Source: a virus
Strand: one strand, 5' to 3'
Virus genome (UHGV): UHGV-0128598
Length of the DNA: 11,616 bases
Below are positions 1 to 11,616 of this stretch, one piece after another. Both the position numbers and the translations under genes were made by a program. Position 1 is the stretch's first letter. Each line of letters starts with the position of its first letter. Under the pieces are notes generated by a model. It was not told the DNA's origin and did not search any database. It worked only from the letters and a program-made list of their open reading frames with translations.

Positions 1-182
1 TGCGGGAAAGCAGACGCAAGAAATAGCGGCAATGTCTGTCCGTCCAGTCGAGCATCGGCGCGATGGAAAAACGTGAAGGGCTGTATCCCGGCGTTTTTCC
101 TCTGTTAACGCTGTTCTGGTGTGGGTTGTGCGATTCTTTATTTTCGTGCATTTTTTGTCTTTATGTCGTATTTTTTCTTTAT

Positions 183-240: not shown

Positions 241-1329
241 ATGGCCTACTATAGCATAGAAAAACGTCAACGCGCCGATGGGACTTTACGCTACCGCTGC
301 ACCGTGGGCGTAAAAGAAGGTGGGAAATATATCTACCGGGAAAACCGAACATTCAGCAAACAGGCCCATGCCAAAACGTGGGGTGCTGGTAGGGTTGCTG
401 AACTGGAAACAAATGGGGTGCCGACCACCAACGACTTAAACAAAATGGTTGTTGGCGATCTGCTCAAACGCTATATCAACGATCCCAACCTCGGCGGCAA
501 AGCCGGGCGCACAAAACGTTATGTACTGGATATGTTGCTGGACTGCAACATCGCCGAAACCCCTCTGACAGACCTTTCAACCAGCCACGTTATCGAGCAT
601 TGCCGCCACAGAAACGGCGCTGGTGCCGGTCCTTCTACTATTAACCACGATGTAAGTTACCTTTCTTCCGTTCTGGCATCCGCCAAACCCGTCTACGGTA
701 TCGACTACACGACCAATCCCGCAACAGATGCAAGACCTCTACTGCTCCAGATGGGGCTGATTGGCAAATCCAAACGCCGCAGCCGCCGCCCTGTGAGCGA
801 CGAACTGGATAGACTGCTCGCAGGGCTTGAGGCCAGAAGCGATCACGTCGCAGCAAAAATCCCCTTCGTTGATATTCTTAACTTCTCAATCCTCAGTTGT
901 ATGCGAGTTGGCGAAGTGTGCAAAATCCGCTGGGAAGATGTAGACGAAAAACAAAAGGCCGTGCTGGTCAGAGACAGAAAAGACCCGCGCAAAAAATCCG
1001 GTAACCATATGCTGGTACCACTTCTCGGCGATGCCTGGAACATAGTGCAACGTCAGCCCAAAATCAGCGAGTTAATTTTCCCTTATAACTCTCGTTCTGT
1101 AACTGCGGGTTTTCAACGTGTCAGGAACGCCCTGGGCATTGAAGACTTGCGCTACCACGATATGCGCCGGGAGGGGGCCAGCAGGCTTTTTGAGGCGGGT
1201 TTTAGTATAGAAGAAGTGGCCCAGGTTACAGGCCATCGGTCTCTTAATGTACTCTGGCAGGTTTATACTGAACTGTTTCCGAAATCCCTGCATGAAAAGT
1301 ACGACGCGCTGCACGCTAAAAAGAAGTAG
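241..1329 (+). CDS. int: Phage tyrosine integrase (site-specific recombinase)
   Basis: 362-aa ORF with ATG start and AAGGA ribosome-binding site 6 nt upstream. C-terminal catalytic region shows the tyrosine-recombinase pattern: R in CMRVGEVCKIRWEDV, H-x-x-R in YHDMRREGASRLF, and H...Y in VTGHRSLNVLWQVYTELF. Sits at the edge of a phage gene block. Confidence 0.85.
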   Translation: MAYYSIEKRQRADGTLRYRCTVGVKEGGKYIYRENRTFSKQAHAKTWGAGRVAELETNGVPTTNDLNKMVVGDLLKRYINDPNLGGKAGRTKRYVLDMLLDCNIAETPLTDLSTSHVIEHCRHRNGAGAGPSTINHDVSYLSSVLASAKPVYGIDYTTNPATDARPLLLQMGLIGKSKRRSRRPVSDELDRLLAGLEARSDHVAAKIPFVDILNFSILSCMRVGEVCKIRWEDVDEKQKAVLVRDRKDPRKKSGNHMLVPLLGDAWNIVQRQPKISELIFPYNSRSVTAGFQRVRNALGIEDLRYHDMRREGASRLFEAGFSIEEVAQVTGHRSLNVLWQVYTELFPKSLHEKYDALHAKKK

Positions 1330-2651: not shown

Positions 2652-3755
2652 TTAGGGTGTATTTAACCCTTTAATTTTTTTATGGCTTAGCAAGCCGAAC
2701 AGGCCCCATATTTTATTAAAGGCGCGTGTTACTTTTTTATCCAGAAGCTTTATGTACAGCGCTGCAATAGTAAACGATATTAACATCGAAATAACTATCG
2801 TCACCTCATAGTTAACAAAAGTCTTCGTAACCGGATATTCAACCCACCACTTCCTTTCAAACATAGCGTGAGACCAAAATCCGATATCGGCATGTATTAA
2901 ATACAGTGGGTATGTCATCGCCCCAAGAAACTTAACAACATTATAAAACTTACCGACTTCAGATACGTTAGATGCACACCAGGTTAACGTAACAAGAGAG
3001 ATACATGCGAGCAGAAGAGATGCATCAGAAACTGAATACCCAAAACTTCCATTTACATATGAATTAAAACCCAACATTCTATTATATATGAGGATCACAC
3101 TAAGAACCATCAAGACGAAATCAAAAGGAGATGGCTTATTTTTCATTATGTCATATATTACTATCCCTGCAATGAAATGACCGGCATGTTCAGTTATAAA
3201 TAGCGCATCAACAAAGCTAGAATGGATTAAAAATTGATTGCTGTATGAAATCACCAACCATGCAAAGCAAATCTCCCTTCTGTAACCACTCCAAATGTTA
3301 AATAACATCATAATGAAAACCAATATATAAAATGTCACCTCTTTCTGAATTGTCCAATAGATATCGCTAAAAAAATGATATCCGAACACTTGGGGGAAAA
3401 ACGTAAAGCTATAGAATAAAGAAACAATCCTTTCCTTAAAATCAACCATTGGTATAAAGCACTGAAACACTAAAACTATAAATCCAAATATTATAAAGGT
3501 GGGTACTATCCTATTAATCCTTGACTTAATAAATTCAACAGGTGTTCTTCCAACTGATGAAAGTGATATTACAAATCCACTTATAATGAAAAATAAATCA
3601 ACACCAAAGTCCCCAAAATAGAAGGCATTAACTGTTAACTCTTTCGGTAGGAAGCCTGAGATAGGCCCAGCGAACAAGTAGTGGTACAACATCACCATCA
3701 TAAATGCCATAAAGCGAAGACCGTCGAGCGCTTCAATCCTTACTGTGGTTTTCAT
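2652..3755 (-). CDS. Integral-membrane acyltransferase, Acyl_transf_3 (OafA/Oac) family; probable O-antigen O-acetyltransferase
   Basis: The track starts at TTG 3758; ATG at 3755 is the likely start (AGAGGA upstream), about 367 aa. Highly hydrophobic with many predicted transmembrane segments and the family motifs: R-x10-H (LDGLRFMAFMMVMLYH), FFxISG (VDLFFIISGFVIS) and RI.P (RINRIVPTF). Markedly AT-rich compared with its neighbours. Confidence 0.85.
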   Translation of the reverse strand: MKTTVRIEALDGLRFMAFMMVMLYHYLFAGPISGFLPKELTVNAFYFGDFGVDLFFIISGFVISLSSVGRTPVEFIKSRINRIVPTFIIFGFIVLVFQCFIPMVDFKERIVSLFYSFTFFPQVFGYHFFSDIYWTIQKEVTFYILVFIMMLFNIWSGYRREICFAWLVISYSNQFLIHSSFVDALFITEHAGHFIAGIVIYDIMKNKPSPFDFVLMVLSVILIYNRMLGFNSYVNGSFGYSVSDASLLLACISLVTLTWCASNVSEVGKFYNVVKFLGAMTYPLYLIHADIGFWSHAMFERKWWVEYPVTKTFVNYEVTIVISMLISFTIAALYIKLLDKKVTRAFNKIWGLFGLLSHKKIKGLNTP

Positions 3756-3760
3756 CAAAT

Positions 3761-8355: not shown

Positions 8356-9870
8356 TTACCGCATGCCGGGGTCAACCTGATTTATCAGCGGCGCTATCCA
8401 GAAAAGATTATTACCCGGCAGCAGCGTACGCACGTTATGCAGTACCCGATCGCCAGCATCACCGTTGAGCACTCCGGCGGTCACATCGGTGACGGTATCC
8501 AGCAAGCCAAACGTCGGGCCGAGAGCGGAGCCAATAAAGCCACGGCTGGCATAGCGAGACTGTGTGCCGGTACCGAGCAGTGCACCCAGCCCCACCATAC
8601 CGCCGGAGGCTTTTTCTGCCATGTTGTTATATTCCATCAGCGGGCCGAGAATACCGGACCGGTCGATACCTTCAATGGCCAGTTTCTGAGGCGACCAGTC
8701 AACCTCTTTACCATTTGCGGATTGTTTAAGTGCGTACGTCAGTGCGCCGAGGCTAATCTGGAAAGCGGTACCGTAATAAAACTGTCCGGTTCCCTCCTGC
8801 AGGCCGCCCAGCGTTGCGCGGTTGTAGGACGCGGTAGCGAACGATTTAAACTGGAAGATAGTTTTACCCAGTGGCGTGCTGGCCCACAATGGCGTATCGC
8901 CGATCCCCGGTGTGATAACTGTATTGTTAACGTCTTTGAGCACGGCCGACTGAAAAACGCCAGCCACATGCTGATCGTCCCATTTTTCAAAATTGCCGAT
9001 ATGCCAGCCATTGATTACCTCACCGTGTTTTTCGAATTCGCTGCGAATACGCGCGGCCATATTGTCGTTAATGCCGAGCTTGGCAAGGCGGCGGCCCGCA
9101 AACGCGCCGGACAGAATGCCGTCGGAGGTGATCATGCCGTTTACCGATTTGTTCATATCGTCGAAGTGGCCCATCAGCGTGAGCTTGCCGAACGCATCGG
9201 TGACGCGCTCCATTCCCGCCTCTACCGCTGTAGTGCGGGAGGAGCTGTCTACCAGGTCACCCATCGTACGCGCACGGGTATGCAGGATGGTTTCCAGCCC
9301 GACGGCCATTTTTAACTGTTCGGCCCGGCTGGCCTTGAATGCCGGCGACCGGGTTATCAGCGCAGAGTAACCGCGCATGGTATTGCCAAACCCGTTAACC
9401 ATCACACCGCGGGCGAGATCAGGAATAGCGGAAACGGTCATACCGCCCAGCTTGGTGACAAAGTTGGCGCTACGCAGAAACGCACCGGCGCGAACGAAAA
9501 ATGATGATGGGTCATCCGGCATACCGTAGGTACCGACGAGGCGATCGCGAAGCGCCAGAATATCGCGCAGATCGGCTTCGCGCGCCTTCGCCAGCTTTTC
9601 CTGCTCTGCCGGGCGTAACCGCATCAGCGCGTCGTATTCGTCCTGGATGGCAGCGAGCTGCGAATCCAGCGACTTGTTGCCAAAGGTACGGGTTAATTCA
9701 ATTTCCGCTGAGGCTTCGCGGATATGACGCTGCAGGACGTAGTTTGCATCGCTCTCCAGATAATCTTTCATCAGGCGATCGGGAACGCTCAACGTACGCG
9801 ATTTGGTGCTGCCCGGCGATTTCAGCATCTTCGCGGGACATGGTTTTCTCACCGCGTGACCACCAGTCAA
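8356..9870 (-). CDS. Internal virion (ejection) protein, T7 gp16-like, C-terminal portion; apparently separated from the N-terminal portion by a frameshift
   Basis: 504-aa ORF. Gly/Ala-rich hydrophobic stretches and a FQFKSF motif resembling the C-terminal part of T7 gp16 as recalled. The first 30 codons or so look non-protein-like and overlap the upstream ORF, so the true N-terminal boundary is probably the frame junction near 9795-9802. Confidence 0.6.
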   Translation of the reverse strand: MTGGHAVRKPCPAKMLKSPGSTKSRTLSVPDRLMKDYLESDANYVLQRHIREASAEIELTRTFGNKSLDSQLAAIQDEYDALMRLRPAEQEKLAKAREADLRDILALRDRLVGTYGMPDDPSSFFVRAGAFLRSANFVTKLGGMTVSAIPDLARGVMVNGFGNTMRGYSALITRSPAFKASRAEQLKMAVGLETILHTRARTMGDLVDSSSRTTAVEAGMERVTDAFGKLTLMGHFDDMNKSVNGMITSDGILSGAFAGRRLAKLGINDNMAARIRSEFEKHGEVINGWHIGNFEKWDDQHVAGVFQSAVLKDVNNTVITPGIGDTPLWASTPLGKTIFQFKSFATASYNRATLGGLQEGTGQFYYGTAFQISLGALTYALKQSANGKEVDWSPQKLAIEGIDRSGILGPLMEYNNMAEKASGGMVGLGALLGTGTQSRYASRGFIGSALGPTFGLLDTVTDVTAGVLNGDAGDRVLHNVRTLLPGNNLFWIAPLINQVDPGMR

Positions 9871-11182
9871 CCAGCATATTGCGGAATTTATCTCGCTCGC
9901 TAACGATTTTACCCACCTTGTACACGCGCGGAAAATAGCTGGTCTGTCCCATCGCTTTCAGTTCGGCATCCGGCGGGAGTAAGCCCAGTTCCTGCTGGGC
10001 TGTCTTCACGCGGTTAATGACCGTACGCATTGCCTGCGCAGCTTCCTGCACTTTTGCATTAACGTGCACGTCGCCGTTACGCAGCGCCTCGCCAACCTGT
10101 TCACGGAAGGCCGTATAACCCAGATCGCCGCCTTCGGCTTTATACTGGGTGTATGCCTGCTTATTCGCAGTAACGACGGCCGCCTCTTCGCGGTGCCAGC
10201 CACGTACGCGCGTCTCGGCTGCTACCGGTGTTTCGATACCGCGCAGGTTGCCTTCCAGCGTGAAGTTATTCTCCGCCAACTCCAGCGCTGTCCGGCGCGC
10301 TTCTTTTGATGGGGATTCCATCAGGCGGGTGATCGGCGTCAGATAGCTACCGGCCTTTTTAGCCAGCTTGCCGAGCGGGCCGCCAGACACCGGTGTGAGG
10401 TCTTCCAGCGTTGCTTCGCGAATACGCATGGCGCCGACGCTGCCACCGTTCGGTAAAGTATCCGCCAGGGCGTCAGCTGCGTTGTTAATCGTTGGCGCGG
10501 CATTCATGTTATCGAGCGCCTCCGCCACTTCCCGTGTAGCCGCGTTTCTTACCGATGGGGTGATCATCGCGCCAGCAGTAGCAAATACACCGCTGAGAAG
10601 CGCGCCGGCTGTAATGTGCGCGGCGCTCTCCCTTGCTGTTCTGGTGTACTGCTCGTTATTGAGCGCAACCTCGCTAAGTGCGGTACCGGCGGCGCCAATA
10701 GCAATCTGAGAACCAATACGAGCAGCCAGGCTTCCCTGCGCACCGGGAATAAACATCGATGCGACCGTGACAGGGTCGATAACCCCGGCGGCGATACTGG
10801 CCAGAGTTCCTTCAGCGCCTGCCTCAGACAAAACCCGACGGTCTTCATTTTCATCGTCTATCTGGTTTTTTATCCAGGCGGTTTCCTCTGGCGATCGAGA
10901 ATCCGCAAAGGCGGATCCCCATTGTTCGTACCCCTTTAGTTCGTTTTTATCAGAATAAGGGTTATACCCGTCCGCCGGTTCGAATTGTTTGGCCGAGCGG
11001 AACATTCCAGCCAGCAGGTTATTCTGACGAAATGCAGCGCCCCACACAGACGGCTCATCCTGCTGAGGTGCTGGGTTAGTACCTTCAGGCAAAGGCACAT
11101 CAAATCCGGTAGGTGCAGCCAGGACATTACCCGCCGGAGTGAATCCGTTATTGAGTTCTTCAGGGGTGGCGTATACCGGCAT
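9698..11182 (-). CDS. Internal virion (ejection) protein, T7 gp16-like, N-terminal/central portion
   Basis: 494-aa ORF, ATG start overlapping the upstream stop (TAATG). Motifs resemble T7 gp16 as recalled: TPEEL, SEAGAEGTLASIAAGVIDPVTVASMFIPG (compare AGIIGAGVDPLSYVPMVG) and EKTMSREDAEI (compare AKMSREETRY). The last 30 codons or so are low-complexity and overlap the next ORF in another frame. No N-terminal transglycosylase-like region is evident. Confidence 0.6.
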   Translation of the reverse strand: MPVYATPEELNNGFTPAGNVLAAPTGFDVPLPEGTNPAPQQDEPSVWGAAFRQNNLLAGMFRSAKQFEPADGYNPYSDKNELKGYEQWGSAFADSRSPEETAWIKNQIDDENEDRRVLSEAGAEGTLASIAAGVIDPVTVASMFIPGAQGSLAARIGSQIAIGAAGTALSEVALNNEQYTRTARESAAHITAGALLSGVFATAGAMITPSVRNAATREVAEALDNMNAAPTINNAADALADTLPNGGSVGAMRIREATLEDLTPVSGGPLGKLAKKAGSYLTPITRLMESPSKEARRTALELAENNFTLEGNLRGIETPVAAETRVRGWHREEAAVVTANKQAYTQYKAEGGDLGYTAFREQVGEALRNGDVHVNAKVQEAAQAMRTVINRVKTAQQELGLLPPDAELKAMGQTSYFPRVYKVGKIVSERDKFRNMLVDWWSRGEKTMSREDAEIAGQHQIAYVERSRSPDERLSGERCKLRPAASYPRSLSGN

Positions 11183-11577
11183 TATTCAGTGCTCCACGAA
11201 AAGTAATTTTTAACCCTGTCCATGCGCTCGTTATGCAGGCGCTTGTACTGCTCATCGAGCGCACGGTGCTTATCTTTGAACCCACGAATATCCTGCCCGC
11301 GTTGCAGCTCATTGCGATCATGTTCTTCGCGCTCTTCCTGCATTTTTTTGTATGGCGCCCACTCTTCCAGTGACGGTTTCCAGCGCATCGGCCTGCCGTA
11401 CGAATCGTAGAACGGTTGTACCGCCTCGATACCATCCTTATCTTTTGTTCGCACCATGATGGCGTAATCGCCATTGCGGGCCGTCAGTACATCAGGGGTA
11501 ATTTCCAGATCGCCGCCAATACGCGACTCCGGCGTTTTGCTGGTGACAGGCGCTGCGTTACCGGGTGATGCTGCCAA
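11182..11577 (-). CDS. Hypothetical protein, translationally coupled to the gp16-like gene
   Basis: The track ORF starts at a TTG (11577) with no ribosome-binding site. The first ATG is at 11457 (MVRTKDKDG..., about 91 aa). Charged, helix-like C-terminus. Stop overlaps the next start (TAATG). A different frame is open from the window edge to a stop at 11484-11486, so an upstream gene may be cut by the window. Start and reality of this ORF are uncertain. Confidence 0.35.
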   Translation of the reverse strand: MAASPGNAAPVTSKTPESRIGGDLEITPDVLTARNGDYAIMVRTKDKDGIEAVQPFYDSYGRPMRWKPSLEEWAPYKKMQEEREEHDRNELQRGQDIRGFKDKHRALDEQYKRLHNERMDRVKNYFSWSTE

Positions 11578-11616
11578 CTTACTGATTTAGTGTATGATGG
11601 TGTTTTTGAGGTGCTC

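Follow-up and report, generated by a model that had tools for sequence, protein, structure and literature searches.

Among two-component spanins, the overlapped class is the most frequent (228 of 528; PMC6139136). In the prototype, the lysB/lysC pair of phage P2 (Summer 2007; Kongari 2018; PMC6139136), the i-spanin has an N-terminal transmembrane segment, and the gene of the lipoprotein o-spanin begins within the i-spanin gene, in the +1 frame, and runs past its end. The two genes are the last of a holin-endolysin cassette, and the o-spanin gene has been missed by automatic annotation; o-spanins of this class are usually missed by gene callers (PMC6139136). Each of these features is also found in the locus described here.

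A second described system is that of the dusA-associated integrases. An island or a prophage replaces the 5′ end of dusA and is flanked by semi-conserved att direct repeats of approximately 21 bp; such elements have only the integrase gene in common, and their cargo varies greatly (PMC4482086). The tyrosine integrase gene beside and divergent from dusA, the replaced dusA 5′ end and the att repeats are all shared by the present prophage.

In lambda sib retroregulation, the expression of int depends on sequence beyond the int 3′ end and on the integration state. The E. coli genes mscL and arfA have a tail-to-tail geometry with complementary transcript 3′ ends (PMC10070815), and the same geometry is found at the junction considered here.

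We analyzed a stretch of 11,616 nucleotides from the virus genome UHGV-0128598 (hereafter, the window), in which an integrase gene (int) on the plus strand and an o-spanin gene (Rz1) on the minus strand overlap at their 3′ ends (Table 1). The components are all of known kinds, namely a dusA-associated integrase, an overlapped spanin and a short convergent overlap. The int/Rz1 overlap is real, and we consider it probable that it is an ordinary, neutral and compact junction of two modules rather than a regulatory device.

Table 1. Features of the left prophage end, with positions in the window.
Feature	Position	Strand	Basis
dusA 5′ end (tRNA dihydrouridine synthase A)	1–151	−	PGAP on the near-identical STEC383 locus; direct reading
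attL core, TCGAGCAT(C/T)GG(C/T)GC(G/A)A	48–63		Alignment of the two prophage ends in STEC383
Three copies of CAGCACCCC	183–191 and 195–203 (direct); 212–220 (inverted)		Repeat search
int, dusA-associated tyrosine integrase, 362 aa	241–1329	+	Stop TAG 1327–1329; Pfam, PHROG
int/Rz1 tail-to-tail overlap, 14 nt	1316–1329		int and Rz1 ORF coordinates; same geometry in L003 and L032
Rz1-type o-spanin (outer-membrane lipoprotein), 81 aa	1316–1561	−	PHROG, homologues, dN/dS; stop TAG 1318–1316
Rz-type i-spanin, 127 aa from GTG at 1796	1413–1796	−	phrog_2536 'Rz-like spanin' (E 1.1e-46); PGAP coordinates
Endolysin, phage lysozyme family	1793–2323	−	PF00959 (E 1.2e-25); phrog_7
Holin, class II (P21 S-type)	2304–2540	−	PF04971 (E 1.4e-30)

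Prophage end and attachment site

The window represents the left end of a prophage, and over bases 1–2700 it does not differ from E. coli STEC383 and B379 (100% identity). The element is a temperate podovirus-type prophage in the 5′ end of E. coli dusA. In STEC383 (prophage locus L005), it is approximately 34 kb long and is bounded by the rebuilt dusA and a displaced dusA 5′ fragment. The other loci compared below are those of CAVP773 (L003), GCA_047498715.1 (L032) and Shimwellia NZ_WBXP01000027.1 (L006). The rebuilt dusA is a hybrid gene, in which the start codon (151–149) and roughly the first 29–34 codons are supplied by the prophage; Salmonella dusA matches window bases 2–73 at 90–98%. The displaced 5′ end persists as a pseudogene at L005 34076–34180, approximately 34 kb away, together with the attR repeat. 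The late operon on the minus strand is arranged in the order internal virion proteins, terminase, tail fibre, acyltransferase moron, holin, endolysin, Rz and Rz1, and no gene other than int lies on the plus strand at this end.

The int product matches the Pfam family Phage_integrase (PF00589, E 2.6e-19) and PHROG integrase families. Candidate catalytic residues are R222, H306-x-x-R309, H332 and Y342, as judged from their motif positions. Relatives of this integrase were collected from 25 loci in Enterobacterales and a few other Proteobacteria, with identities of 57–100% and a single one of 39%, and dusA adjoins them in the three loci examined on that side. In the window, the dusA coding sequence, which ends at position 151, is divergent from int, and the prophage belongs to the dusA-associated integrase elements. 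The attL core (approximately 48–63) sits inside dusA, upstream of int, and the same TCGAGCAT.GG.GC.A is carried on the attR side, approximately 34 kb away. The original prediction had placed the att site not between int and the lysis genes but on the other side of int, where it is indeed located. The core appears to fit the semi-conserved att site that Farrugia et al. 2015 (PMC4482086) describe for dusA.

The region between attL and int contains three copies of CAGCACCCC. The second and third of these form a perfect 10-bp inverted repeat directly upstream of the int ribosome-binding site, and additional inverted copies lie within the 5′ part of int (379–387 and 414–422). The megablast homology of the Yersinia phage YeP1 begins at position 138 and so covers the upstream copies. 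These repeats may be arm-type Int sites or an operator. A 13-nt inverted repeat with 92% complementarity was also observed between the att core (CATCGGCGCGATG, 53–65) and the first codons of int (CAACGCGCCGATG, 268–280); it could be a chance occurrence or a second core-type site.

The 90-bp divergent spacer between dusA and int (152–240) yielded no sigma-70-like promoter for int, even at a relaxed threshold of 8/12 matches, and no good promoter for the rebuilt dusA. Near attR, at the far end, the final plus-strand gene (L005 33752–34003) is annotated as PrtN-family, and no terminator-like site was found between this gene and attR. In the circular genome, attP and int would immediately follow the PrtN-family gene, without an intervening terminator-like site. 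This gene is a putative excisionase gene, and integration may split a transcription unit consisting of PrtN, attP and int.

A copy of this prophage end is also present in Shimwellia pseudoproteus DSM 3038 (L006), with 99.7% identity across 3.2 kb, and the int, Rz1, Rz, endolysin and holin proteins of this copy are all 100% identical to those of the window. The host flank in the Shimwellia record is alignable to E. coli only in part; therefore, the record is not simply a mislabelled E. coli sequence. The comparison suggests a recent cross-genus transfer.

Further inside the prophage, the window lacks, at position 9819, a segment of 77 bp that is present in STEC383 (L005 9819–9895) between the imperfect repeats GGCG[C/A]TTTCA. 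Its absence splits the gene of a 967-aa internal virion protein (STEC383 CDS 8356–11259) into two ORFs (8356–9870 and 9698–11182). In STEC383, a frameshifted SLT-transglycosylase gene adjoins the internal virion protein gene. Both prophage copies may be defective. The window also differs from STEC383 by a single mismatch at 11350 and by mismatches from 11565 onward, where identity is lost in the last ~50 bases (11565–11616). Therefore, the window derives from a genome other than STEC383. The divergence in 11565–11616 may represent a further mosaic boundary or an indel.

Spanin genes and the 3′ overlap

The Rz1 ORF matches three PHROG 'Rz-like spanin' families, of which phrog_5672 is the best (E 8.8e-19), and phrog_16495 aligns almost end to end (residues 5–79 of Rz1 with profile positions 4–78 of 82). 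The lipobox of Rz1 is L-C-S-C, and the predicted lipoylated residue, Cys19, follows MLTTRIILSAILTITLCS; among the aligned homologues this column reads LCSC, LCGC or the canonical LSGC. Cys61 is invariant and Cys38 is near-invariant in the alignment, and both are periplasmic candidates for intermolecular disulfides. Rz1 lies in the +1 frame of Rz and has 32 codons past the Rz stop, which corresponds to the overlapped architecture. The full-length homologues examined in their genomic context have the same start inside Rz, the same +1 frame and an extension of approximately 30 codons past Rz.

The most conserved part of Rz1, DEDLQADIETAECLRQLR...YRWQAWY, is located wholly beyond the Rz stop. For the Rz1 frame, the 28 codons past this stop have a pS of 0.69 and a pN of 0.16, and comparisons with three diverged cassettes gave pS values of 0.55–0.75 and pN values of 0.16–0.17. 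In the other five frames over the same codons, pS does not exceed pN in four, and antisense frame 1 has a weaker excess (pS 0.50, pN 0.20). As judged from these substitution patterns, Rz1 is under purifying selection in its own frame beyond Rz.

PGAP leaves Rz1 unannotated in the near-identical E. coli STEC383 record, and no Pfam match was obtained for the 81-aa ORF. Both facts would agree with an ORF-calling artefact, in which 1316–1561 is not expressed in the called form or Rz1 terminates sooner, with no true overlap as a result. The PHROG spanin matches, the conserved lipobox and Cys residues, and the frame-specific purifying selection beyond Rz make such an artefact extremely improbable. 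In addition, a Shine-Dalgarno-like GGTGA can be read upstream of the Rz1 ATG at 1561, and o-spanins are commonly unannotated (PMC6139136). The invariant Ala78 codon (1330–1328) alone already overlaps the int stop codon. An embedded or short Rz1 is ruled out by the 23 homologues found in the databases, every one of which extends approximately 30 codons past Rz and ends within 1–2 residues of the end of the window Rz1. None of them ends inside Rz, as an embedded type would, and the reading frame and stop that the original prediction had assigned to Rz1 are thus confirmed by comparison with homologues.

Upstream of Rz1, the longest ORF of Rz begins at 1814, and the start at 1796 overlaps the endolysin stop as GTGA. 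The hydrophobic stretch KLLALAVLLALLVGAYYAGYL forms the N-terminal transmembrane segment of Rz. The N-terminal segment of the endolysin is hydrophobic and SAR-like, and the cassette at 1793–2540 looks like a pinholin and SAR-endolysin system. The locus is predicted to encode a two-component spanin of the overlapped type with a role in outer-membrane disruption. An acyltransferase-family gene for an integral membrane protein (2652–3758 as the longest ORF, 368 aa; 2652–3755 in PGAP) is inserted between the tail fibre gene and the lysis cassette, and it is probably an O-antigen-modifying moron. In the related EC2 prophage, the acyltransferase gene has the opposite orientation.

The 14-nt overlap was described correctly by the original prediction with respect to its coordinates (int stop TAG at 1327–1329 and Rz1 stop TAG at 1318–1316), the reading frames and the identities of the two genes. 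The int share of the overlap comprises part of A359, K360, K361, K362 and the stop, and the Rz1 share comprises part of A78, T79, S80, F81 and the stop. The opposed TAG stops read GCTA...TAGC. The int tails beyond LH[ED]K[FY] vary across the 25 loci in both sequence and length, and intact integrases range from 360 to 367 aa. In the Rz1 homologues, Ala78 is followed by 2–3 context-dependent residues (...WY[KRN]A plus 2–3). The endings ...ATSF and ...ATSS, each followed by the stop, occur only beside this integrase; the ending is ...ATE in EC2 and L031, and ...AVK, ...AVSK or ...AIAL elsewhere, with VK and VSK in lambdoid contexts. The DNA downstream of Rz1 is unrelated between these contexts. 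Because the ATS[F/S] ending is confined to the neighborhood of this integrase, the last Rz1 codons and the stop are read from the antisense strand of int.

The megablast homology of YeP1 int ends at 1298, and that of the integrase-free EC2 lysis cassette begins at 1326. Taken together with the context-dependent Rz1 tails, these limits indicate that the int and lysis modules abut without a spacer. The heptamer TAGCGTG after the EC2 Rz1 stop was considered as a remnant of int, but it is probably not one; the sister locus L031 has TAGCCCG at this place, both run into the same non-int sequence, and we judged the resemblance to be a coincidence.

The origin of a neutral junction may be envisaged as follows. 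The late minus-strand operon ends in an overlapped-type o-spanin gene, and the dusA-specific int ends against this operon. The conserved body of Rz1 stops at Ala78, and the last 2–3 codons and the stop represent the first in-frame stop in the antisense of the Lys-rich tail of int. The overlap would then have arisen by extension of the 3′ end to the next stop, which is the usual origin of convergent overlaps; according to Kingsford 2007 (cited in PMC3887535), the length distribution of such overlaps is explained by random 3′ extension. Both proteins tolerate the overlap, since they share nothing but unconserved tails.

The int-Rz1 junction is rare: among 5,426 complete E. coli genomes, 3 contain it. 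Three sequence lineages carry the junction (that of the window, CAVP773 and L032), and the overlap is exactly 14 nt in each, while their lysis cassettes differ by 18–35% at the protein level. CAVP773 is 100% identical to the window up to approximately position 1000, and the identity drops to approximately 71% from approximately 1300 on. L032 has 60–70% identity over the 5′ two-thirds of int, 97% over 1201–1300 and 77–93% over the spanin genes. The recombination breakpoints fall inside int (approximately 1000–1200) and inside the lysis genes, not at the junction; therefore, the persistence of the junction is explained by co-inheritance. Related integrases elsewhere have unrelated convergent neighbors at +16 to +31 nt (a tail fibre gene at +20), with a gap instead of an overlap. 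These varied neighbors and the co-directional integrase of the phage YeP4 indicate that neither the integrase family nor the phage type as such entails the overlap. An exact-pattern search of IMG/VR for the junction (AAGAAGTAGCYYTRTACCA) gave no true match, and its four hits were AT-rich chance matches.

Transcription across the junction

A pattern scan of bases 1–2700 revealed no promoter-like site and three terminator-like sites, compared with 2.9 expected from shuffled sequences. One of the three adjoins the junction on the minus strand (1316–1304), directly after the Rz1 stop; its stem consists of 5 pairs, 3 of them G-C, and its U tract is poor. Folding of 141 nt across the junction gave no significant structure on either strand (z = +0.35 and −0.05), and no match to an Rfam family in the window reached the gathering score. 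Neither the pattern scan nor the single folds nor the alignment fold revealed, at the junction, a G+C-rich hairpin between A and T tracts that is conserved among relatives. The original prediction, that neither strand has an intergenic terminator, is borne out in the sense that no intrinsic terminator above the shuffle expectation and no significant fold were detected.

These results bear on the idea that a cryptic bidirectional terminator or hairpin within the overlapping coding sequence (GCTA...TAGC and its flanks) ends both transcripts, so that there is little antisense transcription. The opposed TAG stops make a short inverted repeat, CAVP773 has a 13-bp stem centered on the overlap (z = −2.9), and the weak minus-strand site directly after the Rz1 stop would also be in keeping with such an element. 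However, the stem is only 4 bp in the window and folds no better than shuffles there, and sites like the one on the minus strand occur in the number expected from shuffling. The extended stem of CAVP773 is not conserved in the window or in L032, and the three junction variants give a weak consensus fold that carries a covariation penalty. A cryptic terminator is thus very unlikely.

Since no intrinsic terminator was detected, the convergent transcripts must be expected to overlap to some extent. Downstream of the int stop, the plus-strand RNA has C-rich and G-poor stretches (C/G 1.5–2.1 at 1330–1489 and 1650–1729), and the minus-strand RNA past the Rz1 stop has a C/G ratio of 1.9 at 1235–1156. 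Such untranslated, C-rich and G-poor antisense RNAs are compatible with Rho-dependent termination, and Rho would probably end the overlapping transcripts once translation stops. In the prophage state, any minus-strand read-through of the late operon past int would enter dusA in the sense direction. For a neutral junction, an antisense effect would be a by-product that at most damps int at a late stage of the lytic cycle, after the need for integrase has passed. A search of a literature library found no report on convergent antisense transcription of prophage integrase and lysis genes.

The mutual transcriptional interference between integration and lysis that the original prediction envisaged is plausible only as a possibility, and its sole ground is the absence of a detectable terminator. 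In a stronger form, the terminator-less overlap would be a selected regulatory device. Late antisense transcription would shut off int by interference or by double-stranded RNA and RNase III, and antisense RNA from int would restrain Rz1 and Rz, so that integration or excision and lysis become mutually exclusive; in the circular genome, early plus-strand read-through across attP might feed int. The lack of an intrinsic terminator on both strands agrees with such a device. Selection could also yield the overlap of exactly 14 nt that is kept in three mosaic lineages despite the divergence of their cassette proteins. Since neither a sigma-70-like int promoter nor a terminator after the last plus-strand gene before attR was found, read-through across attP is conceivable. 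The E. coli mscL-arfA pair provides a precedent for a regulatory convergent 3′ overlap (PMC10070815), and the CAVP773 hairpin hints that structure is possible at this place in some variants.

A selected device is nevertheless unlikely in our opinion. The overlap is confined to the unconserved tails, and its conservation is explained by co-inheritance. Related integrases have unrelated convergent genes 16–31 nt away, and the integrase of YeP4–6 is a different one and is co-directional. In addition, the junction is rare, int is required before the late genes turn on, and Rho probably curtails both antisense RNAs. A related proposal regards the overlap as the meeting point of two large convergent units in the circular genome, namely the early operon, which would run via attP into int, and the late operon. 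The overlap would be retained since collision or antisense pairing prevents int from being expressed together with the late or lysis genes, and integration would rewire the arrangement by cutting int from the early operon and placing dusA downstream of the late read-through. We regard this proposal as rather improbable. If the overlap did couple the expression of int and the lysis genes, dusA-targeting phages would possess a compact switch that depends on the integration state.

A neutral junction of modules remains our preferred reading of the overlap. For annotation, the locus contains an o-spanin gene that is predicted to be functional and is missing from the RefSeq annotation of these prophages, which is of value for annotation and calibration.

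Comparison with described systems

For both mscL-arfA and lambda sib, antisense or RNase III effects and defined RNA structures have been shown experimentally; the present junction shares geometry alone with them, and no conserved structure was found.

Among sequenced phages, the Yersinia enterocolitica temperate phages YeP1–3 and YeP4–6 are the closest. YeP1–3 share the integrase (74% at the nucleotide level and 79% at the amino acid level) and the region upstream of int. In YeP1, however, an unrelated convergent gene follows int at +16 nt, and there is no int/Rz1 overlap. YeP4–6 are the closest phage relatives by terminase (77% amino acid identity). They have their podovirus-type structural and replication modules in common with the prophage, as well as the order tail fibre, lysis cassette and integrase, but they carry a different integrase. 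In YeP4, this integrase gene is co-directional and lies 318 nt after Rz, and an int/Rz1 overlap is again absent.

A lysis cassette abutting int is not among the features given for the dusA-associated integrase elements in PMC4482086; the convergent neighbor of int in the other members retrieved is a tail fibre gene or an unrelated gene 16–31 nt away. The similarity of Rz1 is to PHROG spanin families and not demonstrably to P2 LysC. Compared with the P2-type spanins, the 3′ end of the o-spanin gene enters the antisense of a converging int, a case that is absent from the spanin survey (PMC6139136), and the locus provides a clear example of a convergent overlap at a mosaic junction, in which the tail of one gene is read from the antisense of its neighbor.
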